Below are positions 13,921 through 50,406 of a DNA stretch of 64,000 nt, piece after piece (within the stretch, counting starts at the first letter, position 1; every line of letters starts with the position of its first letter). The DNA comes from Candidatus Parcubacteria bacterium. GTDB taxonomy: Bacteria; Patescibacteriota; Minisyncoccia; UBA6257; 2-01-FULL-56-20. The stretch covers positions 93,758 through 157,757 of the forward strand of contig DAIDJL010000002.1 in the NCBI GenBank assembly GCA_027450205.1, read 5' to 3'. Below the pieces are notes generated by a model. It worked only from the letters and a program-made list of their open reading frames with translations. It searched no databases and had not been told where the DNA came from. A program made the translations under genes and the position numbers.

Positions 13921-14054
13921 GGATTGGCACAGGCGCTGCCTTATGTGTTTTTGAGGGGCTTCGGAGCCGCCAAAGGGCGGCGAGACGGAGCGCGCGGCCA
14001 GCAGGCCGCGACGCGTACCCGAGAAAACGCATAAGGCAGCGCCTGTGCTAATCC
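13921..14054. repeat. 25-bp inverted repeat (one mismatch) flanking an 84-nt GC-rich spacer, 25 nt upstream of the gpmI start
   Basis: Left arm ggattggcacaggcgctgccttatg at 13921-13945; right arm cataaggcagcgcctgtgctaatcc at 14030-14054; the spacer holds further GC hairpins. Confidence 0.7.
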
Positions 14055-14078: not shown

Positions 14079-15614
14079 ATGGCAAAGAAAACCATGGTGC
14101 TCATCGTGCTCGATGGATGGGGTATTGGAAGGGACGACTTTACGAATCCGCTCTGGGTGGCAAAGCCTCCCACGTTCGAGTGGCTTGCGCAAAATTACCC
14201 CGTCACAAGCCTGCAGGCATCCGGCATCGCCGTCGGGCTTCCGTGGGGCGAGGTCGGCAACAGCGAAGTGGGACACCTTACGCTCGGCGCGGGGAAGGTC
14301 GTCTATCAGTATTACCCGAAGATCACGATGGCCATCCAGGACGGCAGCTTCTTTGAGAACGCGGTGCTCAAGGCCGCCTGCGCGCACGCGCGTGAGAACG
14401 GCGGCGCGATCAACTTTGCGGGACTGCTCACGAAGGCGAACGTGCACGCGTCGCTCGAGCACCTGCAGGCGCTCATCAAAATGGCGCAGCAGGAAGGCGT
14501 GACGAAGATAAACCTGCACCTCTTCGGCGATGGAGAGGACAGCCCGCCGCGGTCGATCGAAAAATTCCTCGGTGAACTGCCGGGGGAATATCTCGCGAGC
14601 CTCGTCGGCCGCTATTATGCGATGGACCGCAACCAGAACTGGCGGCTTACGCAGACCGCGTACGACGCGATGGTCGGCACCGCGGGCGCGGTCGTGGAAG
14701 ATCCCATGGCGGCGGTCGAAAAAATATTCACACAGGGCACCACCGAAGAATATCTTCCTGCGCTCCGATTTTCGGACGATAAAAAACTGCAGGACGGGGA
14801 CGCGCTCGTGTTCTTCAATTACCGCGAGGACAGCATCCGCCAGCTCGCATCCGCGTTCATCACGAAAGGATTCGATCATTTTCCGATCGTGCCGTTGCAC
14901 AACGTGTATATCGCGACGTTCACCCATTACGACGACGCGCTCGACGCGCCGGTCGCGTTCCCCGCAGATAATGTCACGGACCCGATCGGGAAGGTGCTAA
15001 GCGACGCCGGCGCGACCCAGCTGCGGCTTGCCGAAACGTACAAATACGCGCACGTCACCTATTTCTTCAACGGCCTCCGCGAACCGCCGTACAAAGGGGA
15101 GTACCGGACCCTCGTGCCGTCAAATACGAATCCCCATCCCGAAGAGCATCCCGAGATGATGGCGGCCGCGGTCACCGACCGCCTTATCGAATCCATCCAG
15201 AGCCGCGGATTTGATTTTATTCTCGTGAACTACGCGAACCCCGACACGATCGCGCATACCGCCAACTTCAACGCCGCGCTCGAGGCCATAAAAGTGATCG
15301 ATGCGCAGATCTCGCGCATCGTAAAGGCCGCTGACAACCCCGACACGCTCCTCTTCATCACCTCCGACCACGGGAACATAGAAGTGATGCTTGATAAGGT
15401 CACGGGCGAACCCGAAAGCTCGCACGATGCCAGCCCCGTGCCGTTCTATCTCGTCGGCCAGCAGTTCCGCGGACGCAAATTTGTGAACGGCGACCGGCTG
15501 GCGCTTGAGACGCTTGGCTCCCTCGCCGACGTTGCGCCGACGATCCTTGCCATAATGGGGATCCCCAAGCCGCCGGACATGAGCGGAAACAGCCTGTTGG
15601 ACGGGCTGATCTAA
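14079..15614 (+). CDS. gpmI: 2,3-bisphosphoglycerate-independent phosphoglycerate mutase
   Basis: 511 aa, VLIVLDGWG ... SDHGN metal-binding motifs. Confidence 0.9.
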   Translation: MAKKTMVLIVLDGWGIGRDDFTNPLWVAKPPTFEWLAQNYPVTSLQASGIAVGLPWGEVGNSEVGHLTLGAGKVVYQYYPKITMAIQDGSFFENAVLKAACAHARENGGAINFAGLLTKANVHASLEHLQALIKMAQQEGVTKINLHLFGDGEDSPPRSIEKFLGELPGEYLASLVGRYYAMDRNQNWRLTQTAYDAMVGTAGAVVEDPMAAVEKIFTQGTTEEYLPALRFSDDKKLQDGDALVFFNYREDSIRQLASAFITKGFDHFPIVPLHNVYIATFTHYDDALDAPVAFPADNVTDPIGKVLSDAGATQLRLAETYKYAHVTYFFNGLREPPYKGEYRTLVPSNTNPHPEEHPEMMAAAVTDRLIESIQSRGFDFILVNYANPDTIAHTANFNAALEAIKVIDAQISRIVKAADNPDTLLFITSDHGNIEVMLDKVTGEPESSHDASPVPFYLVGQQFRGRKFVNGDRLALETLGSLADVAPTILAIMGIPKPPDMSGNSLLDGLI

Positions 15615-17908: not shown

Positions 17909-18664
17909 ATGGAAAATTATTATTCTTCCGTCGCCCCGATCATCGAAGAGGCAGGCGTTGAACTAAGAAAAGGGTTTGGACAGGCCGATGCCGTAGCTTT
18001 CAAATCCACCCACCATGGTTCTGCGGTCACTGAATTCGATCGAAATATAGAACGGCTCATCGCTCAGCGGCTGGGCAAGATCTATCCCGATATAAGATTC
18101 TTCGGCGAAGAGTTCGGAGGAGATGATAAAGCGGAACGGTTTTGGCTTGTTGACCCCATCGACGGCACTTCGAATTTTATCCGAGGCCTTCCATTTTCAA
18201 CCACGATGATAGCTCTCATCCAGGAAGGATGTCCCGTCTTTTCAATCATTTACAATTTTATGACAAAAGAAATGTATTCTGCCGCGAAGGGAGCGGGGGC
18301 GACGTTGAATGGTAATGCTATCCATGTAAGCAATCGCCCGCTCGACCACTCTTACGTCTTTGTAGAAACCAATAAGCATAAAAAGGAGAATCTTGAAAAA
18401 TATCTCCACATTAATCAAAAATTCAGTATCTACGCCACCAAAAATAGCGGATTTGAATATTGCATGGTGGCAAGCGGAAAGATAGAAGGGCGTATAACGT
18501 TCGGCGATCCTCCCGGCAAGGATTGGGATTATGCTCCCGGCGCCCTGTTAGTCGCCGAAGCCGGCGGCATAGTTAAAAATCTCGGTAGCAATACATATGA
18601 TTATCGGAACCACGAGTTCATAGCGGCGAATGAGGAAGTCTATGGAGAATTGAGCAGTCTGTAA
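17909..18664 (+). CDS. Inositol monophosphatase family protein
   Basis: WLVDPIDGTSNF motif, 251 aa. Confidence 0.8.
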   Translation: MENYYSSVAPIIEEAGVELRKGFGQADAVAFKSTHHGSAVTEFDRNIERLIAQRLGKIYPDIRFFGEEFGGDDKAERFWLVDPIDGTSNFIRGLPFSTTMIALIQEGCPVFSIIYNFMTKEMYSAAKGAGATLNGNAIHVSNRPLDHSYVFVETNKHKKENLEKYLHINQKFSIYATKNSGFEYCMVASGKIEGRITFGDPPGKDWDYAPGALLVAEAGGIVKNLGSNTYDYRNHEFIAANEEVYGELSSL

Positions 18665-18686
18665 TAAAAATATTTAAAGATTTTAT

Positions 18687-18845
18687 CCCTCCCCCATGGC
18701 ACACTATTGAAAAGCAGTTCGCGGAGGCGATGCCGGCTTGGTCGTTCATTCTGATGAACGCAGCATCGCCGAGCGCACAGGCGGACGCGCGCCGCAGGAG
18801 CGCGCGGACCGCCGGTGCTTTTCAATAGTGTGCCATGGGGGAGGG
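18687..18845. repeat. Perfect 29-bp inverted repeat flanking a 101-nt GC-rich spacer, between the IMPase gene and tRNA-Leu
   Basis: ccctcccccatggcacactattgaaaagc at 18687-18715 and its exact reverse complement at 18817-18845. Confidence 0.8.
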
Positions 18846-18914
18846 AGAGGATTGACTTTTGCGATATTCCCATGATATGCTTTAATCACTAAGACCGATC
18901 CTCCTTTTGAAGGT

Positions 18915-19451
<537 letters not shown>

Positions 19452-23673: not shown

Positions 23674-26600
23674 CTACACCTTTCGTATCGCCACCCACGC
23701 TTCCTCGCCATTGATCTTTGTCGCTTCCTCCGCGGTAAACTTATCGGAGCGGGCATAGAGCGTCTCGGTCGTACCGGTTGTCATTTTGAACGCTTCCTCA
23801 TTGGAAGCGATCGCATTTTTTACTTCCATCGGCAACTCCATCATCGCAATGATCTTATCCTTCGACTGAAGTCCGGCCTTCTGCCGCAACTCCTGGAACA
23901 TGCGCGCCACCTCGCGTACCAATCCTTCCTCGCGAAGCGCGGGCGTGATCTCGGTATCGAGCTCGACTTCGTTCGCCAGCTCCGGCACAAAAACGATCTC
24001 CTTCACATTGATCTCGCTCTTTAATATGTCGAGCAGGCCCGCGGCCCGCACCGTCGCTTCCGCGCCGCGCACGGAAAGCTTCGCGAGCGGCTGGCGCACT
24101 TTTATCTTCGCCGCCGCGCGAGCGGCGAGACCCAGGCTCGCGAGGCGCCGGATCTCCGCCATGCTCTCCAGCAATTCCTTGCGCTCTTTTTCGCCAAGCG
24201 AGAACTCAGCCTTCGGCCACGATTCCAGATGCACCGAACCGGCGCCATCCGCAGGCGCGAGCTCAAGATAGATCGCCTCGGCGAGAAATGGCATGAATGG
24301 TGCGATCGTTCTGCTTACCGCGAGCAGGGTCCCGCGCATCGTCTCGAAGAACGCGGCATCCTTGCGCTTGCGCGAGCGTCGCAGATACCACGTCGAAAGA
24401 TCGTCCACGTATTCCTGGATCGCGCGCGTGGCGCGAACCGTGTCGTATGCGTCGAGCGACACGGTCACCGTTTCCACGAGTTCGCCGGTGCGCGTGCGGA
24501 TCCAAAGATCGAGCAGGTTGCCTTCGGCGCCATCGCCGGCCTCCCCGGCGCCATTTGCCGCTCCGGCAAAATTTTCCACGATCTCATCGTTCCGATACGT
24601 CGCGTAATATTTATAGACGTTCAAAAGCAGCGAACCCACCTTCCGGTAGACGCCCTCGACGCCCTTCTCGGAAAAACTGAGATTATCCGCCTGCATCACG
24701 GTCGAATTCATCAAATAGAAACGCAGGGCGTCAGCGCCGAATTTATCGATGAGCAATTTTGGATCGGGGAAATTGTTCTTTGACTTGCTCATTTTAGAAC
24801 CATCCTCGGCGAGGATCGTTCCCGTCGTAACCACGTTCTCGAACGGCGCATGACCGAACAAAATGTACGACACGACATGCGAAAGATAGAACCACGCGCG
24901 CGTCTGTGCGATATACTCCGCCACGAATTGCGCGGGGAAATGGTGCTTGAACTCCTTCTCGTTTTCGAACGGATAATGGTATTCGGCGAACGGCATGGAG
25001 CCCGCCTCGATCCAGGAATCGAAGATCTCCGTCGTACGGCGCATGGCGCCGCCGCACTTCGTGCACGGGAACGTGACGTCATCGATGTACGGCCGGTGGA
25101 GATCCGCCTCGCCGCTGTCGTTGCGCGGCACTGCTTTGACATCCAGCTTGCGGATCTCGGCAAAACCGATGAAATCCGGACCGCGCTTTTCCTTTTCTTC
25201 CGTCGCACGCTTCTCGCTCCACGCCTCCGCGGAATGCGTCAGCATCCAGATCGGATATTCATGCGAAACAAGCAGGATATTTTTCCCTTCATATTTTTCC
25301 TCGCACTCCTTCAAAAATCCCCACATGCGCGCGCGGAGATCACGCAGGGACTCCCCGCCCTCCGGGGGATTCGAAAAACGTTCCGCGTACGTCGGGAATA
25401 ACTGCGCATACTTTTCATCTTGATAACCGGTGAGCGTCGGCCCGAGATGGATCTCCTCCAGGCGTGCATCAACCAACTCTTTCTCTCCGGTCAAGACCGT
25501 TGCGACGATATGCTCCGTGTCCTTCGTACGCGTGATATCCGAAGCGATGACGATATCGATCTTCTTGTGTTCTTTCGCCAGTTCCTTTTTGAACTTCTCC
25601 GCCGAAGCGAGCACCTGCTCCTTGCCGCGGGGGGTAAGATGCAGATATTTCCGCTGTCCGGAATCCATGATATCGAACATATTGCTCTCCGCTTCGCCGT
25701 GGCGCATCACCCAATAATTGTTACGCGAGCCACCCGCTTTTTCGGAAAGCTCTTCCATGCTCCCTACCACCTCCACGTGATCGCATCCTTCGCACTTCCA
25801 CACCGGCACCGGATTGCCCCAGTAGCGGTTGCGCGAGATGTTCCAGTCCGGTGCGGCCTCCACGCTCTTTTGATACCGGCCATTTTTGAGATGCTCCGGG
25901 AACCAGTTCATTTCTTTTTGGTTCGAATCAAGCAACCCTTGTTTTATCTTTTGAATGTTCACGAACCACGCCGGAATGGCATTGTAGAAAAGCGCGGTGC
26001 CGCACCGCCAGCAATGCGGATACGAGTGGGTATATTTTTCCTTTTTGAAAAGCAGCCCGCGCTTTTCCAGATCTTCCATCACCAGCTTGTCCGCCTTTTT
26101 AAAGTACTGCCCGCGCAAAAACTCCGGCGCCTTGTCGTTGAACAGGCCGCGGTCGTCGAGCATCGGCACCACCGGCAACCCCACCTTTACGCCCAGCGCA
26201 TAGTCATCCTCGCCGTACACGACGGCCGTATGTACGATACCCGTACCGTCCTCGGTCGTCACAAAATCTGCCGGATACACTTTGTACGATTTCTCCGACC
26301 GCATCGCGGACACCTCAAAGAGCGGCTCGTACTCAAGGCCGACGAGATTCGATCCTTTTATATCTTCGTGCACGATCTCGATCTCCTGATCGCCAAAAAC
26401 TTTTTTGACGAGATCACTTGCAACAATATAAAGCCCCTCGGCGTCTTTAAGCCGAAGTGCGGTATATGCCATTTTCTCCCCCACCGCCAATGCAACGTTT
26501 CCCGGCAGTGTCCACGGTGTCGTAGTCCAAGCGATCAGATATGCGGTGTCTTTTGTTGTATAGTCGCCAAATTTCTGGCCAGCTTTGAGATGAAACTTCA

Positions 26601-27252
26601 CATACACCGACTCCTCCGTCACGTCCTTATAGCTGTTGTCCATCGCCACCTCAAAATTGGAGAGCGGCGTTTCGCAGCGCGGGCAGTACAAAAGCACCTT
26701 GCGGCCCTCGTAGATCAGGTCCTTGTCGAACATCTGTTTAAATCCCCACCACACCGATTCCATGAAATCGGTGTCGAGCGTCTTATACGAGTTGTCGAAA
26801 TCAACCCAGCGCGCGATGCGGCGGACCATCTGTCGCCACTCGGAGACGTACATGAGCACCATGCTTCGGCATGTCTCATTGAACTTCTTGATGCCGATCT
26901 CTTCGATCTGTTTTTTGCCGGAGATGCCAAGCTTGCGCTCCACGACCTCCTCGATCGGCAACCCGTGACAGTCCCATCCCCACCGGCGGCGCACAAAGCG
27001 GCCGTTCATGGTCTGGTAACGCGGCACGACATCTTTTATGGTGGACGCCAAGAGGTGCCCGTAGTGCGGAAGTCCCGTGGCGAACGGCGGGCCGTCATAG
27101 AACGTGAACGGCTTTCCATCTGCCGTCTGCCCAAGGCTCTTTTCAAAAGTTTTATGCTCATCCCAAAACGCGAGCATTTTTTCTTCCATCTCTGGAAGCG
27201 TCACCTCGCCTTCGAGAAAATGCGGCATATGATGGGGTGTTTCCTTTGCCAT
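23674..27252 (-). CDS. ileS: Isoleucine--tRNA ligase (type 2) with an inserted histidine-phosphatase (PGM-like) domain
   Basis: FYDGPPFATGLPHYGH (HIGH region), WTTTPWTLP editing domain, GSKMSKSKNN (KMSKS). Residues about 507-716 contain RHGEAESN ... GGESLRDLRAR ... LLVSHEY. Confidence 0.9.
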   Translation of the reverse strand: MAKETPHHMPHFLEGEVTLPEMEEKMLAFWDEHKTFEKSLGQTADGKPFTFYDGPPFATGLPHYGHLLASTIKDVVPRYQTMNGRFVRRRWGWDCHGLPIEEVVERKLGISGKKQIEEIGIKKFNETCRSMVLMYVSEWRQMVRRIARWVDFDNSYKTLDTDFMESVWWGFKQMFDKDLIYEGRKVLLYCPRCETPLSNFEVAMDNSYKDVTEESVYVKFHLKAGQKFGDYTTKDTAYLIAWTTTPWTLPGNVALAVGEKMAYTALRLKDAEGLYIVASDLVKKVFGDQEIEIVHEDIKGSNLVGLEYEPLFEVSAMRSEKSYKVYPADFVTTEDGTGIVHTAVVYGEDDYALGVKVGLPVVPMLDDRGLFNDKAPEFLRGQYFKKADKLVMEDLEKRGLLFKKEKYTHSYPHCWRCGTALFYNAIPAWFVNIQKIKQGLLDSNQKEMNWFPEHLKNGRYQKSVEAAPDWNISRNRYWGNPVPVWKCEGCDHVEVVGSMEELSEKAGGSRNNYWVMRHGEAESNMFDIMDSGQRKYLHLTPRGKEQVLASAEKFKKELAKEHKKIDIVIASDITRTKDTEHIVATVLTGEKELVDARLEEIHLGPTLTGYQDEKYAQLFPTYAERFSNPPEGGESLRDLRARMWGFLKECEEKYEGKNILLVSHEYPIWMLTHSAEAWSEKRATEEKEKRGPDFIGFAEIRKLDVKAVPRNDSGEADLHRPYIDDVTFPCTKCGGAMRRTTEIFDSWIEAGSMPFAEYHYPFENEKEFKHHFPAQFVAEYIAQTRAWFYLSHVVSYILFGHAPFENVVTTGTILAEDGSKMSKSKNNFPDPKLLIDKFGADALRFYLMNSTVMQADNLSFSEKGVEGVYRKVGSLLLNVYKYYATYRNDEIVENFAGAANGAGEAGDGAEGNLLDLWIRTRTGELVETVTVSLDAYDTVRATRAIQEYVDDLSTWYLRRSRKRKDAAFFETMRGTLLAVSRTIAPFMPFLAEAIYLELAPADGAGSVHLESWPKAEFSLGEKERKELLESMAEIRRLASLGLAARAAAKIKVRQPLAKLSVRGAEATVRAAGLLDILKSEINVKEIVFVPELANEVELDTEITPALREEGLVREVARMFQELRQKAGLQSKDKIIAMMELPMEVKNAIASNEEAFKMTTGTTETLYARSDKFTAEEATKINGEEAWVAIRKV

Positions 27253-27707: not shown

Positions 27708-29420
27708 CTAGATTTTTTCAAGCGTCTTTATACCAAGCAATCCAAGTCCTTTTTGCAAAACCCGCGCCGCAGTGGCAATGAGCAACAGCCGTGCGTCGCG
27801 GCGCGCGATATCTTCGTCCTTCAATATCGGCGTCGTCTCGTAAAATTTATTCGCAGCTACGGCAAGCTTGTAGAGATACACGGCAAGCGTACTCGTGGAA
27901 TACAGCTCGCCCGCGCGCTCCACGACGTCGGGGAACTCGAACAGTTTCCGCATCAGCGCAAGCTCGGCGGCCCGCTCGAGCAACGACGCGTTTATCGCGC
28001 CCGGACGAAGCCGCAGAGACGAGGCCTTTGACTTGCGCAAAATGCTTTTCAGCCGCGCATAGGTGTATTGCAAATATGGCCCGCTGTCGCCGGAAAAATC
28101 CAGCATCTTCTCCCAGTTGAAAACGATATCCGTGGTGCGATTCTCTTTAAGATCGTTATATTTGAGCGCACCCATCGCCACTACGAAGGCGATCTCACGT
28201 TTTTTGTCCGGCGGGAGATCCGGGTTTTTCGCCTCTATGACCTCGCGCGCCTTGACGACCGCATCATCAAGAAGGCCCTCGAGCATCTCCGCGGTCCCTT
28301 CGCGCGTAGAAAGCTTCTTCCCGCCTTCGCCGAGTACCAAGCCGTATTTTATGTGCTTCAGCTCAGCGACATCGCCCAGCCCGAGCTTTTTCGCCACCGC
28401 AAAAAGCTGTTCGAATGCAAGCGATTGCTCGTTGCCCACCACATATAATATCTTCGCCGGTCTATATTTTTTGAGACGGTAGCGGAGATTCGCGATATCG
28501 CGGGTAAGATACAGGCTCGCGCCGTCGGACTTTCGGATGAGCGCCGGCGGCAATCCGACGTCGTTAAGGTTCACCACGATGGCGCCCTCGCTCTGCTCGG
28601 CGATATTTCTGTCCGTAAGCTCCTTTACCGTAGCCTTCATCTCGCGCTCGAACGACGCCTCCCCCATCCATTCATCAAAATCCACATCGAGAATACGGTA
28701 TATCTTCATGAACTCCTTGAGAGATTCTTTCTTGAACCACTCCCATAATTTCCGGTTCTCACGATCGCCGTCCTCGAGTTTTTTAAACTCCTCCCGTCCG
28801 CGCTTTTCGAGCTCGGGATTCGTCTTCATCTCTGCGTGGAATCGTACATATAATTTTTGCAATTCCTCTATGGGATCCTTCTCCACCAGCTTTTTGTCGC
28901 CCCACATCTTGTATGCGGCGATGAGCTTGCCGAATTGCGTACCCCAGTCGCCGAGGTAGTTCCACCGCACCACGCGGTAGCCGGAAAGCTCGAGGATATT
29001 CGCAAGCGCGGCGCCGATGATCGTCGTGCGCATGTGTCCGACATGCATCTTTTTTGCGATGTTCGGCTGGGAATATTCCACGATCACCGTGCGCCCGCCA
29101 CCGACATTCCCCGCGCCATAGTTTTTATCCGCCGCGACGCGCTTGAACTCGTCCTGCGCCGCCGCATCGCTCACCCAAAAATTGACGAATCCGGGCGCCG
29201 CCGCCTCCACTTTTTGGAAAAACCCGGCGGGCGCTGCGGCGGCTATTTTTGCGGCATATTCCTTTGCAAGTTCGAGCGGCGGAACGCCCTTTATCTTCGC
29301 CTGGCGCAAAGCGATATTGGTCGAATAATGCCCAAAAAGCTCCTCGTCGGGAATGGAGATGTCCACCGGGGCATCGGCGTTCAGTATTTTCCTCACTATT
29401 TCTGAGATTTTTTTGGTCAT
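27708..29420 (-). CDS. argS: Arginine--tRNA ligase
   Basis: Start at MTKKISEIV; class I HVGH motif (AKKMHVGHMRT); 571 aa. The ORF-track upstream extension is low-complexity and runs into the intergenic region. Confidence 0.9.
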   Translation of the reverse strand: MTKKISEIVRKILNADAPVDISIPDEELFGHYSTNIALRQAKIKGVPPLELAKEYAAKIAAAAPAGFFQKVEAAAPGFVNFWVSDAAAQDEFKRVAADKNYGAGNVGGGRTVIVEYSQPNIAKKMHVGHMRTTIIGAALANILELSGYRVVRWNYLGDWGTQFGKLIAAYKMWGDKKLVEKDPIEELQKLYVRFHAEMKTNPELEKRGREEFKKLEDGDRENRKLWEWFKKESLKEFMKIYRILDVDFDEWMGEASFEREMKATVKELTDRNIAEQSEGAIVVNLNDVGLPPALIRKSDGASLYLTRDIANLRYRLKKYRPAKILYVVGNEQSLAFEQLFAVAKKLGLGDVAELKHIKYGLVLGEGGKKLSTREGTAEMLEGLLDDAVVKAREVIEAKNPDLPPDKKREIAFVVAMGALKYNDLKENRTTDIVFNWEKMLDFSGDSGPYLQYTYARLKSILRKSKASSLRLRPGAINASLLERAAELALMRKLFEFPDVVERAGELYSTSTLAVYLYKLAVAANKFYETTPILKDEDIARRDARLLLIATAARVLQKGLGLLGIKTLEKI

Positions 29421-29454
29421 TGACAAAATAAATATATGAATGCCATAATGCAGG

Positions 29455-29628
29455 CGCAGTGGGCTCCGACCGGAAGCGGCGCGGGTAGCCCCTGCAAAAG
29501 CCTCTGTTCTGAGGCATGTGAGGCGGCATACTCTTGATGCCCACCGGGTCGAGCGGACCTCCCGCAACGCAGCCATGCCAGTGGGGGCAGCGGCTGGCGA
29601 ACGGAGATCTTGCCTTGGGCCCACTGCG
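29455..29628 (+). ncRNA. Unassigned GC-rich structured element closed by a 10-bp helix; strand uncertain, with a T-run on the plus strand
   Basis: cgcagtgggc at 29455-29464 pairs gcccactgcg at 29619-29628; a second tier tccg/cgga lies inside; followed by gtttcctttcgc...ctgctttttt. The flanking intergenic DNA is AT-rich. Confidence 0.35.
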
Positions 29629-29775
29629 TTTCCTTTCGCTAATTCACTGCTTTTTTACAATTTCCATTGTAACACCTCACAACAGCCCCGCACCATACTT
29701 ATCTCTATATAAAAAATGGTGCGGGGCATTTATACATTTACGGGCAGGATCGGACAATTAAGGTAAAATGAATCC

Positions 29776-30225
29776 ATGGACACATCCACGAACACCATCG
29801 CGGAAAATCGCCGGGCGCGCTTTGACTACGACGTCTCGCAAAAGTACGAAGCAGGCATCGAGCTTAAGGGGTATGAAGTAAAAAGCGCGAAAGGCGGCCG
29901 GTTTCAGGTTGCCGGCGCGCACGTGCTCATCCGCGGCGGAGAGGCATGGCTCGTGAACTCGCACATCCCGCCGTACCAGGCGGGCAACACTCCGTCGGAC
30001 CACGAAGAGGACCGTGCGCGCCGGCTGTTATTGTCAAAGCTGGAAATCAAAGAGTTGCAGGGCGCGCTCGTTGATAAAGCGCAACACCTCATCCCGCTCC
30101 GCGCGTACTTAAAGCACGGCCTGATCAAGATCGAGCTCGGCCTCGGCCGGTCGCGCAAAAAATCGGACAAACGCGAAGCGATCAAAAAACGCGCGCACCA
30201 TCGCGAGATGCGGGGCGGAGAATAA
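29776..30225 (+). CDS. smpB: SsrA-binding protein
   Basis: 149 aa; RARFDY ... GIELKGYEVKS ... typical SmpB. Confidence 0.9.
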   Translation: MDTSTNTIAENRRARFDYDVSQKYEAGIELKGYEVKSAKGGRFQVAGAHVLIRGGEAWLVNSHIPPYQAGNTPSDHEEDRARRLLLSKLEIKELQGALVDKAQHLIPLRAYLKHGLIKIELGLGRSRKKSDKREAIKKRAHHREMRGGE

Positions 30226-41513: not shown

Positions 41514-41569
41514 AGTTTTCCATTCCACTCAACTCCCCCTCCTTTGGCCAAATTCAGCAAACTCAAATA
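41514..41569. repeat. Copy 3 of the intergenic repeat family (long form)
   Basis: agttttccattccactcaactccccctcctttggccaaattcagcaaactcaaata. Confidence 0.6.
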
Positions 41570-41760
41570 GCCCAATATTCATAAGGAAATCGGGCTCTTT
41601 TGATCCGGCTCTTCCGGTCAAGTGGAAGCGGGCGGAAGCTCACGCGCTCACTGCGTTCGCTTTTGAGAACCCGCGGTTCTCAATACTCTCCTACACGGGA
41701 GGGGCAGCCTGCCCCTCCCGACCCCACCCCTCGTTCGATTCCGTCTACATCGAGCGATAG

Positions 41761-41825
41761 AAAATAAAACAGGCATGTTCGCCGAACGGTCCATCTTGGG
41801 GAGGCGAACATGCCTGTTTTATTTT
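41761..41825. terminator. Long perfect inverted repeat acting as a bidirectional terminator-like hairpin
   Basis: 16-bp arms aacaggcatgttcgcc / ggcgaacatgcctgtt with a 19-nt loop, flanked by an A-run and a T-run. Confidence 0.5.
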
Positions 41826-41937
41826 CTATGGTGGAGCTGACCGGACTGACTGGCAAACTCTAGTAAACGAATTATATATTCAAGTGAAACTAATGGCGGT
41901 AATGTCCTAATGGCGGATGCTCCGAGATCCAAAATAG

Positions 41938-42465: not shown

Positions 42466-42501
42466 AGATAAATTCTAGCAAATTAAGGCGGAAATCCAAA
42501 A

Positions 42502-42557
42502 AGTTTTCCATTCCGCTCAACTCCCCTTCTTTTACGAAATTCGGCAAACTCAAAATA
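42502..42557. repeat. Copy 4 of the intergenic repeat family (long form)
   Basis: agttttccattccgctcaactccccttcttttacgaaattcggcaaactcaaaata; about 85% identical to copy 3. Confidence 0.6.
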
Positions 42558-42604
42558 ATGCAGATATATAAAGAAAATCGACCTCTTTCGGAGATCGATT
42601 TTCA

Positions 42605-42750
42605 TTCAAGTGGACATGGTTGAAAAAAGTTGGAACCGGGTGGAAAGTTGGATTTTGGAGTGGGGCGAGGCGATACAGGAAAGAAAAATGGCGAGGAATT
42701 ACTAGAGGTTCCTCGCCCCTTGGTACACATGATGGAGATTGAACCCTGTC
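42605..42750. repeat. Direct repeat D1 (about 140 nt)
   Basis: gtggacatggttgaaaaaagttggaaccgggtggaaagttggattttggagtggggcgagg...ggtacacatgatggagattgaac; paired with D2. Confidence 0.65.
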
Positions 42751-43577: not shown

Positions 43578-43720
43578 TCGCCGTGGACATGGTCGAAAAA
43601 AGTTGGAACCGGCTGGAAACATGGATTTTGGAGTGGGGTGAGGTGATACAAGATAGAAGAATGGCGAGGAATCATTAAAATTTCTTGCTGTTCGGTACAC
43701 ATGATGAAGATGGAACTTTC
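43578..43720. repeat. Direct repeat D2 (about 140 nt, roughly 85% identical to D1)
   Basis: gtggacatggtcgaaaaaagttggaaccggctggaaacatggattttggagtggggtgagg...ggtacacatgatgaagatggaac. Confidence 0.65.
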
Positions 43721-47454: not shown

Positions 47455-47716
47455 GTTGATTCGTTAAGTTCTCGACTGGCGAACAAAAAGCTCCCAGCCA
47501 GCGATGCCTTTCGACACCCATATCCCTTTCGAGATATGACCGTTCATGGCGCTCTGACTAGGAGCTTTTTACCATGAACGGTATTTTGCGCCATGCACCA
47601 TCTTTGGCTGATAAACAGCTAGATAACAGTGTTTAGGCGACTGTATTAAATTGTTCCTTCAATATAGCACCAACTGAGCCTCTTGGTAAATGCGCACGAT
47701 TGTTTATAATATAGCC

Positions 47717-48462: not shown

Positions 48463-50042
48463 GCGAACTTCACGCCTTAATTTACTGCCGCGTCTCATCT
48501 GAGCGACAAAAGAACGAGGGCCACGGCCTCGACAGCCAAGAGCAACGTTGCCGTCTTTATTGCGGCCAAAAGCAATACAAGGTTGAGCGTGTCTTTAGGG
48601 ATAGCTTTACGGGGGCCGGAGATTTTATGGAACGCCCAGCGATGGGAGAATTGCTCGCCTACCTCGACAAGCATCCGCACAGGGATGATTACGTTGTCGT
48701 TTTCGATGACCTCAAGCGATTTGCCCGCGACACCGTTTTTCATTTAAAGCTCCGGCGTGAATTTAAGGCACGGGGCGTTAAAGTGGAGTGCCTCAATTAT
48801 AAATTCGACGAATCCGAAGAGGGTGAATTTATCGAAACCGTTTTAGCCGCACAGGGCGAGCTTGAACGGAAACAGAATCGCCGCCAAGTTATCCAGAAGC
48901 AAAAGGCGCGCCTTGAAGCTGGCTATTGGCCTTTCTGTCCGCCGCCTGGCTATCGTCAGCCCAAGACGGTGGCTCATGGAAAACTTCTTACGCCATACGA
49001 GCCGGAAGCCACGATCGTGAGAACAGCCCTTGAGGGATTTGCGACAGATCGGTTTGAGACGCAAGCGGACATGGCCCGCTACTTGGGAGAACAAAACTTC
49101 ATCGGCAAAAGCAGGGTTCCCTTCCAGCTAGCAAATCGTCTCTTGGCCCGCGTATGGATATATGCCGGATTTATCCAATATGAGCCGTGGGAGGTAGTAC
49201 GACGGCAGGGCCACCATGAGCCAATCATCGACCTAGCGGCTTATCATAAGATTTTACGAAAGCTCGAAGGTCGCAGTCCGGTAAGGACGAGGGTAGATAT
49301 GCGCGAGGACTTTCCTTTACGCCACACACAGATCGCATGTGGCAATTGTGGTCGGCCCTTTACTGCTTCATATACGACCAAGAAAAAGGGCTATAGGCGG
49401 CCTTATTATCGTTGCGCCAATACTGCATGCCCTGAACACACAAAGAGCATCCCTGTCGAGCTTATAGAAACACAATTTAAAACCATGTTGCAGGAGATCC
49501 GCCCGAAGCCCCTCATCCTCAAAATCAGCGAAGCGATGCTCTACGAGAAATGGGAGCGGCGTGTGTCCGAGCGGGCTAATGCCGAAAAGAAAGAGGTTGG
49601 CGAAATTGCAGGGATTCAGGCAGAAATACACGACCTCTCAAAGCTTGCACGGAAAGCGACCAGTGAACGCGTCCGGCGGGAGTATGAGAAGCAGATCGAG
49701 GAACTAGCGGCGAAGGAGGAAAAATTGGCGGAGAAAAATGATCCTACAAAGAAGCCAAAAATTGAGTTTAGAACCGCTCTACAAATGGTATTCGATTACC
49801 TAAAAGACCCATATTCTAAATGGGTTGAGGGCGATTTGAGTGAGAAAAATCTGGTGCTGAACCTCGTTTTTGAGGGTCTCGTTTTCTATGACCGAGGATT
49901 TGGATTTAGAACCGCTCTTTTGTGCCTTCCTTTAAGGGTTTTTGAGCATTTTACTACCTCTAAATCACAGGGTGTGGAAGCGGGCGGAATCGAACCGCCG
50001 TGTAAAGATAATGCCGATGGGCCGTCTACGAGCGTAGTTTAG
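48459..50042 (+). CDS. Large serine recombinase (resolvase/invertase N-terminal domain + recombinase domain + zinc ribbon)
   Basis: YCRVSSERQ catalytic serine motif, CGNCG ... C ... C zinc ribbon, coiled coil; 527 aa. Confidence 0.85.
   Translation: MSELHALIYCRVSSERQKNEGHGLDSQEQRCRLYCGQKQYKVERVFRDSFTGAGDFMERPAMGELLAYLDKHPHRDDYVVVFDDLKRFARDTVFHLKLRREFKARGVKVECLNYKFDESEEGEFIETVLAAQGELERKQNRRQVIQKQKARLEAGYWPFCPPPGYRQPKTVAHGKLLTPYEPEATIVRTALEGFATDRFETQADMARYLGEQNFIGKSRVPFQLANRLLARVWIYAGFIQYEPWEVVRRQGHHEPIIDLAAYHKILRKLEGRSPVRTRVDMREDFPLRHTQIACGNCGRPFTASYTTKKKGYRRPYYRCANTACPEHTKSIPVELIETQFKTMLQEIRPKPLILKISEAMLYEKWERRVSERANAEKKEVGEIAGIQAEIHDLSKLARKATSERVRREYEKQIEELAAKEEKLAEKNDPTKKPKIEFRTALQMVFDYLKDPYSKWVEGDLSEKNLVLNLVFEGLVFYDRGFGFRTALLCLPLRVFEHFTTSKSQGVEAGGIEPPCKDNADGPSTSVV
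49976..50003 (-). other. tRNA 3'-end-like fragment (T arm plus acceptor strand) embedded in the recombinase 3' end
   Basis: Minus strand reads ggcgg-ttcgatt-ccgcc-cgcttcc-a; no matching 5' half was found. Confidence 0.4.
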
Positions 50043-50406
50043 CGATGCTAAGCGAAGTGATCATATTTTCACGCCAAGCGTATGATCGTCAACCTGACGC
50101 TAGTCCCCTTATATAAGACCGGTATCGATCCAAGGAACCCGGATCGGCCGATCCCTCCGGTTATGCGTTAAGCAAAAGCGAAGGCTGGAACTCGATTAGA
50201 GTTGGCAGTGTAGATTGTGCAGCGATGACGACGCTGCCAACGGCTCGCAAACCCATGGATTATCTTTATCGAAGCCAATGCGCTCCCGAATATCGTGCCT
50301 TCGATAAGGCTGCCGCTATTATACCACGAATAATGCTAGAATAAAAGTATGCAAATATGCTGCACCAAAGGTCGAAGAGTTTAAAGCTAATGATTTTTTA
50401 ATCTTT

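Follow-up and report, generated by a model that had tools for sequence, protein, structure and literature searches.

We have found what is probably a genuine RNA gene, lineage-specific and unannotated, in the spacer between argS and smpB of a Candidatus Parcubacteria bacterium. The stretch analyzed comprises 64,000 nucleotides of contig DAIDJL010000002.1; it is called the window below and its numbering is used throughout. The element is a GC-rich block closed by a long helix and would be read on the plus strand. The best explanation overall appears to be a small-RNA gene acting mainly in cis on argS, the gene of the arginyl-tRNA synthetase (ArgRS). We propose this tentatively, at a little less than an even chance, and the specific mechanism of argS control set out below is more doubtful still. 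The argument is carried by the conserved expression signals around the element, the covariation of its closing helix, its position between a putative argS promoter and the argS ATG, and an interior that evolves fast.

The genes argS (27708–29420, minus strand; Pfam tRNA-synt_1d, DALR_1 and Arg_tRNA_synt_N) and smpB (29776–30225, plus strand; Pfam SmpB) are separated by 355 nt, positions 29421–29775. A preliminary description of this DNA, made from the sequence alone, had pointed out here a GC-rich block closed by a helix, and the block is indeed there. The arms CGCAGTGGGC (29455–29464) and GCCCACTGCG (29619–29628), detected by a repeat search, are 10 nt long, 100% complementary and 154 nt apart; the GC content is 0.66–0.68 in 29450–29599 against 0.38–0.48 in the flanks, and the T-rich strings gtttcctttcgc and ctgctttttt are found 3' of the block. 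When G·U pairs are included the closing helix, P1, reaches 14 bp, with GGCGCAGUGGGCUC (29453–29466) as its 5' arm and GGGCCCACUGCGUU (29617–29630) as its 3' arm, the 10-nt arms being its perfect part. Judging by folds and composition, the structured core of the putative RNA would span 29453–29630 on the plus strand, 178 nt with 67% GC, and would start with a G located 4 nt after the -10 hexamer of a candidate promoter. In the window alone the closing helix is not beyond chance: the 64 kb contain roughly a dozen perfect inverted repeats with arms of 10 bp or more and spacings of 55–220 nt. The support for it comes from comparison. Folding gave z scores of only -1.1 (plus strand) and -1.5 (minus strand) for a fold of 231 nt, and of -3.5 for the full predicted transcript, 29453–29745, for which none of 200 shuffles was as stable. 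The second tier of pairing proposed earlier (tccg/cgga) is used neither in the minimum free energy (MFE) folds nor in the centroid folds, and by comparison cgga (29602–29605) belongs to the 3' strand of another hairpin, P4.

The homologues of SmpB place the window in the Paceibacterota/Minisyncoccia, within the Candidate Phyla Radiation (CPR), where the divergent arrangement of argS and smpB is widespread. About 30 non-identical relatives, all of them metagenome-assembled genomes, carry the element at the same place and on the plus strand. Several relatives were recovered from peat (SPRUCE/Marcell), among them JBEKBG010000001.1 (L001), Ga0181520_10001195 and Ga0187851_10000116. Read along that strand, the arrangement begins with CAT-TGACA, a -35 box laid over the argS start codon, followed by a spacer of 16–18 nt and a TGn-extended -10. 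After 5–9 nt comes a G-started closing helix of 7–21 bp, then a GC-rich interior of 66–186 nt, the 3' arm of the helix and a U-rich tract. A block of the type yTGCTCTTTTACATATAGTACCACAGC, a terminator made of a hairpin and a T-run, and the TARAAT-GAAnnC-ATG at the start of smpB complete the order. All the traits of the family (position, plus-strand promoter, G-started helix, U-tract, minus-strand promoter block and second terminator) are present in the window and align with those of the relatives, and the similarity between elements tracks phylogeny.

Among 17 close relatives, the best helix that begins 30–52 nt beyond the start of argS has a mean length of 11.5 bp, versus 7.9 bp in shuffled sequences. 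At least 7 contiguous end pairs are formed in 29 of the 30 non-identical elements, with 23 different 5' arm sequences. In these 29 elements each pair of arms is 100% complementary, while 3' arms swapped among sequences pair at 54% of the positions (maximum 68.5% in 2000 trials). The closing helix is thus conserved by covariation. The compensatory changes that the preliminary description had proposed to look for in related spacers do exist, and its idea of a structured non-coding RNA gains its support from this comparison. The 5' arm of P1 has a family consensus, approximately GRGCRGUGG, that recurs out to Liptonbacteria; a loose pattern of this type, searched over the window and the loci, was too unspecific to be informative. 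The mean z of elements cut at the helix ends is -3.6 for plus-strand and -2.9 for minus-strand folds, and pairwise consensus folds fell below column-shuffled controls in six of eight pairs (z from -2.5 to -7.7).

Two candidate promoters and a second terminator that flank the element were overlooked in the first reading. The putative promoter of the small RNA, P(+), lies at 29420–29449 on the plus strand and consists of a TTGACA -35 (29420–29425), an 18-nt spacer and the extended -10 TGcCATAAT (hexamer 29444–29449); the -35 shares its first T with the argS start codon, whose final base it is on that strand. A consensus scan gave 11 of 12 matches, with the TG upstream, in the window, and 10/12 and 11/12 in the relatives L081 and L001; it failed in L004, where the -10 is a weak CATCCT. 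In close relatives TTGACA (or one mismatch) and the TGn-extended -10 are kept, and P(+) is retained even where the unit does not adjoin the argS start (L019, the second unit of L002, L102 and L029). Located just after P1, a U-rich tract, UUUCCUUUC ... CUGCUUUUUU (29629–29656, plus strand), forms together with this helix a terminator-like structure, T1. Read on the opposite strand, these bases would form the A-rich beginning of the putative argS leader. In more distant relatives a U-run directly follows P1. A putative second terminator on the plus strand, T2 (29685–29739), has a 12-bp perfect hairpin, 29685–29696/29716–29727, followed by AUUUAUACAUUU, and precedes the smpB promoter. Its homologue, a hairpin with a T-run, was found in relatives and is degraded in L184, which lacks the unit. 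The terminator-like sites are all on the plus strand; in the stretch from the element to argS, we found on the minus strand neither a terminator-like site nor a Shine-Dalgarno sequence that could be sequestered.

Facing the element from the other side is P(-), the putative promoter of argS, an extended -10 TGtTACAAT at 29667–29675 of the minus strand that reads toward the element and argS; in the relatives it is the conserved block following the U-rich tract, taken on the opposite strand. At this position TGnTAnnnT is kept in close relatives, inside the block TTGCTCTTTTACATATAGTACCACAGC, and also in L029; other versions of the block are TGGTACTAT, TGGTATTAT, TGCTAAACT and similar ones. In L029, a member of Liptonbacteria whose SmpB is 58% identical, a TACTAT-CAAAGAGC block stands behind the argS-adjacent unit. 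A natural deletion variant, L184 (JGI Ga0395724_000750, 900–1003; SmpB 86% identical to that of the window), shows the locus without the unit: the whole of it is absent, and the spacer reads TGGTACTAT-ATGTAA-ATG, with the P(-) block abutting the argS start and the ATG 6 nt after the promoter. In L184 the block would then be a leaderless argS promoter, the layout that appears to be standard in this genome. The gene smpB has a putative leaderless promoter of its own in the window (29764–29778, plus strand; -10 TAAAAT, 6 nt, ATG), conserved in the relatives in the form given above. Most genes of the window look leaderless as well: in 28 of its 64 open reading frames (ORFs) a TAnnnT hexamer (often TATAAT, TAGAAT or TACAAT) ends approximately 4–9 nt before the ATG, and a Shine-Dalgarno-like motif appears in only 13 of the 64.

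Several indications favour the plus strand as the one that would be functional. The closing helix begins at the transcription start expected from P(+), a symmetric count of G·U pairs over the closing helices gave 22 on the plus versus 13 on the minus strand, and the pairwise consensus energy was lower on the plus strand in six of eight pairs. The U-runs and the plus-strand terminators point in the same direction.

Another feature missed in the first reading is the speed at which the interior of the element turns over. At four-fold degenerate sites of argS and smpB, pairs of genomes show an identity of 0.39–0.77, mostly 0.55–0.73. For the same pairs the interior of the element is 0.47–0.57 identical in most cases, and a shuffled partner gives 0.43–0.48; only in L084–L181 (0.66) and L081–L089 (0.57) was the interior clearly above the shuffled level. 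The interior changes faster than silent codon positions while the ends and the signals stay fixed, and the length of the element varies threefold among relatives. An exact 24-mer of the element was absent from 185,579 genomes, and comparison of the window element with 80 related loci by blastn and nhmmer gave no match. Within species there is little to compare: the element is invariant among contigs that have one SmpB sequence in common (P0003, a single sequence), and in P0039 the two variable sites are both outside the structured core, so that variation at this level is uninformative.

Some internal structure can be followed over short distances. From the spacers and a MAFFT alignment, recurrent helices were read in a subclade formed by L081, L089, L005, L084, L181, L092 and L090, namely UUGGUA/UACCGG with tandem U·G pairs, P3 and P4. 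The hairpin P3 (GCCUC-UGUUCU-GAGGC, plus strand, 29500–29515) appears in the centroid folds, occupies the same MAFFT columns as the GCCUCC...GAGGC of the relatives and is common to the window and L081, L005, L084, L181, L089 and L092. The long hairpin P4 (29553–29614, plus strand) has GCGGACCUCCC as its 5' strand and GGAGAUCUUGCC as its 3' strand, encloses an inner hairpin and is supported by the MAFFT columns and the centroid fold. Its counterpart in relatives is GGCGAAnUCCC...GGGAnnUUGCC, and its pairing in the window is taken from homology and not from a covariance-model score. Apart from the P1 arm consensus and the P3/P4 similarity of the subclade, no conserved interior loop or junction nucleotides were found. 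When 5–8 members were treated together with MAFFT and RNAalifold, the helix registers were misaligned and the consensus was poor (-11 kcal/mol).

Known RNA families do not account for the element. The Rfam search that had been proposed as a check returned for the whole window, at the gathering score, a tmRNA (transfer-messenger RNA), a LOOT RNA and two tRNAs, all of them elsewhere and none in the spacer. Over 29380–29800, both strands, only chance-level matches appeared at E ≤ 10; in the loci of 20 relatives no family reached the gathering score, and the spacer of L029 had none at E ≤ 5. The adjacency of smpB had suggested tmRNA, an identity that the preliminary description itself had rejected, rightly in view of the absence of any match to RF00023 in 29380–29800 at E ≤ 10. 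The actual tmRNA is a standard one-piece molecule that matches the full model at 97.8 bits; it is encoded on the minus strand at 49972–50287, some 20 kb away from smpB, and hence smpB and ssrA are not adjacent here. We agree in the same way with its failure to recognize signal recognition particle (SRP) RNA, RNase P RNA or a T-box, none of which was matched even at E ≤ 10 or in the relatives. For bacterial SRP RNA (RF00169/RF01854) the domain IV motif was not seen on reading the sequences; for RNase P RNA, expected at approximately 300–400 nt, the element is too short; and the T-box leader (RF00230) had no match on either strand, nor is there a minus-strand terminator-like site toward argS. 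A riboswitch or other ligand-binding leader was discarded on account of the interior identity, at the shuffled level in most pairs, and of the lack of an Rfam match. The suggestion of a 6S-like RNA did not survive. Like 6S RNA (RF00013), the window copy is about 180 nt long, with paired 5' and 3' ends, a strong candidate promoter and poor sequence conservation. However, there is no 6S match at E ≤ 10 or in relatives, the predicted shape is multi-branched and not a rod with a central bubble, and the interiors of relatives range over 66–186 nt, some being as short as 66–74 nt. A parallel in status is the orphan RNA LOOT (RF03000), which is also lineage-restricted, stand-alone, structured and of no assigned function; LOOT, unlike the element, has conserved sequence blocks (85 bits here), while the element is almost without a conserved interior and matches no model. 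The LOOT RNA of the window is full-length (47503–47639, minus strand; 85.1 bits, E = 1e-16) and lies some 2.3 kb from the tmRNA gene; a Paceibacterota genome thus joins the carriers of this orphan motif.

Cis-encoded antisense small RNAs with convergent, overlapping promoters are classical objects, RNA-OUT of IS10, CopA of plasmid R1, Sok of hok/sok and GadY among them. We consider the RNA of the argS-smpB spacer to be an undescribed family of this familiar kind, one that would work most like these RNAs. As in them, the window element has a putative strong promoter and a terminator of its own, and it is stem-closed and highly structured; it would lie opposite the putative 5' leader of a neighbouring gene, so that the two RNAs would be complementary whatever their sequence, which could drift freely. 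A candidate promoter is recognized on the strand opposite the presumed target (TTGACA-18-TGcCATAAT, 11/12, conserved). For the transcripts to overlap, argS must be transcribed from the distal P(-) at 29667–29675; a weak proximal -10 exists as well. There are differences too. Here the RNA would act on a chromosomal gene, that of a housekeeping synthetase, in a genome where leaders are largely lacking. The overlap would end some 30 nt short of the start codon, and the extra copies found in some relatives are antisense to nothing obvious. The likeness is drawn here from sequence signals.

The mechanism that we envisage would run as follows. P(+), a near-consensus sigma-70 promoter placed over the argS start codon, would start transcription at approximately 29453–29455. 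The 5' end of the RNA would pair about 165–175 nt downstream and form P1, enclosing the GC-rich P3 and P4, and transcription would end at the U-rich tract after P1 or at 29685–29739, giving an RNA of some 180–290 nt. Since the element lies between P(-) and the argS ATG, such an RNA would be antisense to the leader of any argS transcript from P(-), and these transcripts would carry its exact complement as their 5' leader. The two convergent, overlapping transcription units may then restrain each other, with the small RNA lowering ArgRS output in cis by three routes: collision of RNA polymerases coming from the convergent promoters; occlusion, as binding at P(+) would cover the argS start and plus-strand transcription across P(-) would cover the distal promoter; and pairing of the small RNA with the argS leader. 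That both strands are transcribed, and that argS is affected, we infer. Because sense and antisense come from the same DNA, only the ends, the stability and the promoters would need to be conserved, which matches the pattern seen. The fast turnover is in keeping with a cis-antisense pair. It speaks against a core that binds a ligand or a protein, and likewise against a riboswitch, a ribozyme or the core of a specific ribonucleoprotein. Among the possibilities raised in the preliminary description, the one that the evidence appears to favour is a novel riboregulator of argS.

Several observations weigh against a cis-acting plus-strand RNA. The unit is dispensable, being absent from L184 and from many relatives with short spacers, and it can be present where it cannot be antisense to an argS leader. 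In L102 and L103 it is found although argS is co-directional and upstream, L002 (OY970354.1) has two tandem units of which the second is not antisense to the argS leader, and the 780-nt argS-smpB spacer of L029 (JACPLI010000009.1, 2190–3000) contains three to four tandem plus-strand units, each made up of a promoter of the TTGAC type, a core closed by a helix, and a terminator; the arm GGCGGCAGUG is common to two of these units. Units unable to be antisense to the argS leader suggest that the RNA does something besides acting on argS. Reading of the spacers also showed, 4 nt ahead of the argS ATG, a weak but conserved -10-like TATTYT, and because of it argS may not depend on the distal P(-). 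The preference for the plus strand is not uniform either. Single-sequence MFE favoured this strand in 13 of 24 elements (p = 0.53), which does not choose between strands, and the G·U excess of 22 versus 13 is modest. A covariance model built from L084 and L181 recovered L081, L001, L005 and L089 weakly (E = 0.03–0.2), and this narrow model of two seeds gave no full-length match in the window, the best being a partial one of 4.9 bits. The promoters and terminators, moreover, are all read from sequence, and hairpin-driven template-switch mutation could help to keep the arms complementary without selection.

The tandem copies and the units that are not antisense to argS make a trans role a serious rival, to which we would give roughly one chance in four. 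The RNA would be a structured small RNA acting elsewhere, as a protein-binding scaffold or decoy or as one of a family of siblings, and its place between argS and smpB would be inherited gene order with no role for argS. An autonomous putative promoter with its terminators is what such an RNA would have, the arrays of two to four units are easily understood, and so are the arm consensus GRGCRGUGG that extends out to Liptonbacteria and the P3 and P4 hairpins common within the subclade. Nevertheless, loops and junctions showed no conserved nucleotides beyond that consensus and those hairpins, the interiors of genomes whose silent sites are still 55–73% identical resemble each other no more than random sequences do, the length of the element ranges threefold, and even in distant lineages the copy next to argS still has the putative distal argS promoter behind it.

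A functional RNA on the opposite strand seems rather unlikely. It would be a structured 5' leader of argS, either a stabilizer or an operator for ArgRS or tRNA-Arg, with P(+) as something secondary. The element does lie between the conserved P(-) and the argS ATG, its folds are almost as good on the minus strand (mean z of -2.9 versus -3.6), and synthetase genes are often controlled through leaders, as in T-box leaders, the thrS operator and pheST attenuation. With T-box leaders (RF00230), the thrS operator and the pheST attenuator it has in common a long structured segment between the synthetase promoter and the start codon. Unlike them, it shows no T-box signature in Rfam at E ≤ 10, no minus-strand terminator and no Shine-Dalgarno sequence to sequester, and no conserved leader peptide, no tRNA-like loop and no conserved anticodon-like or specifier-like loop was seen. 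The G·U counts and consensus energies lean to the plus strand, units exist away from the argS leader, and where the unit has been lost (L184) it is the plus-strand T2 that decays. Translation of the region was considered as well. The argS frame is open across the element on the minus strand up to a GTG at 29624, which would give 638 aa instead of the 570 aa counted from the ATG at 29420, but a leader peptide or an N-terminal extension of ArgS was rejected: relatives do not conserve the extension, the frame that is open in the window is closed in L004, and most ArgS calls are of 569–576 aa. Because the frame stays open, gene callers can extend argS into the element, as in the over-long ArgS call of 623 aa in L185.

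We regard as similarly unlikely, and as more speculative in content, a reading in which this is a deeply conserved RNA of Paceibacteria, found from the lineage of the window to Liptonbacteria and at times in tandem arrays, that has retained nothing but its expression signals, its stability and the pairing of its ends, while the interior turns over faster than silent codon positions. It could be a diversifying RNA, for instance one that interacts with a host, a phage or a fast-evolving partner, or a new sort of switch with convergent promoters, coupling its own synthesis to the expression of arginyl-tRNA synthetase in leaderless minimal genomes.

Still less probable is that the element has no function at the RNA level, being a GC-rich, hairpin-prone insert, either a mobile or palindromic leftover or a transcription insulator, with arms kept complementary by template-switch (quasi-palindrome) mutation. 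An interior that changes faster than silent sites and a dispensable unit are what this would predict, and the window has two more helix-closed, GC-rich intergenic blocks, at 13927–14048 and 18686–18846. The element, however, has no similarity to either of them. Intergenic palindromic elements, or elements like MITEs (miniature inverted-repeat transposable elements), such as Correia, ERIC, REP/BIME and RPE, do resemble it in being about 100–200 bp long, closed by inverted repeats, intergenic, able to carry promoter signals and folded when transcribed. In contrast to them, it is single-copy in the window (its 25-nt 5' end occurs once in the 64 kb with up to three mismatches), it occupies an orthologous position, and its arms differ between species and covary, unlike terminal inverted repeats conserved in sequence. 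Neither terminal inverted repeats nor a target-site duplication at the unit boundaries were seen when the L184 and L004 spacers were compared by eye, with no formal test. In some genomes the sequence after P(-) resembles the argS start, a resemblance that is inconsistent and involves two purine-rich segments, and it was rejected as a duplication. Position, strong candidate promoter and two terminators have been kept over a deep divergence (SmpB 58% identity), and similarity tracks phylogeny. The mobile hairpin element considered in the preliminary description was accordingly abandoned. Finally, a riboswitch-like leader or attenuator of smpB, transcribed from P(+) and with the terminators as its expression platform, is very improbable: the element does precede smpB on the same strand in every case, and in L102 the closing helix and a U6 end about 25 nt before the smpB ATG, but smpB has its own conserved leaderless -10 at 6 nt from the ATG, two terminators intervene, and there is neither a conserved aptamer core nor an Rfam match.

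To our knowledge, very little has been reported on regulation and non-coding RNA in CPR/Patescibacteria, and a search of an open-access collection of papers for 6S RNA, non-coding RNA and leaderless mRNAs of Patescibacteria found no description of RNAs of this type. The locus is compact and testable, with two convergent promoters, a covarying helix and two terminators before an essential synthetase gene, in a genome where mRNAs mostly appear leaderless, and L184 offers the version without the unit. It is also a clear case in which the primary sequence of a putatively transcribed element outpaces silent sites while ends and signals remain fixed. The very fast turnover of the interior and the position at the junction between promoter and ATG of a synthetase gene, in a leaderless genome, are its unusual features.

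Other features of the window deserve a brief mention. The block at 18686–18846 is a 31-bp perfect inverted repeat (TCCCTCCCCCATGGCACACTATTGAAAAGCA and its complement) around a GC-rich interior of 99 nt; it is flanked by an ORF whose end is at 18664 and by a tRNA (18915–18997), and its sequence is unrelated to that of the argS-smpB element. The one at 13927–14048, just upstream of a leaderless-looking gene (TAAAAT-AGAGGA-ATG at 14079), has a 19-bp perfect inverted repeat (GCACAGGCGCTGCCTTATG and its complement) around 84 nt, also GC-rich. At 41757–41829 there is a 27-bp perfect hairpin with a 19-nt loop, within a 504-nt intergenic region that has a GC-rich stretch at 41634–41733. Segments are repeated in neighbouring intergenic spacers, approximately 41514–41570 with 42500–42560 (about 60 nt) and 42608–42715 with 43581–43690 (about 100 nt), an example of their sequence being GTGGACATGGTyGAAAAAAGTTGGAACCGG.TGGAAA..TGGATTTTGGAGTGGGG. 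A minus-strand gene at 23674–27252 codes for a class I aminoacyl-tRNA synthetase of 1192 aa, IleRS-like (tRNA-synt_1, Anticodon_1, DUF5915), with a His_Phos_1 histidine-phosphatase domain (residues 514–681, E = 1e-24) inserted in the middle of the catalytic region.

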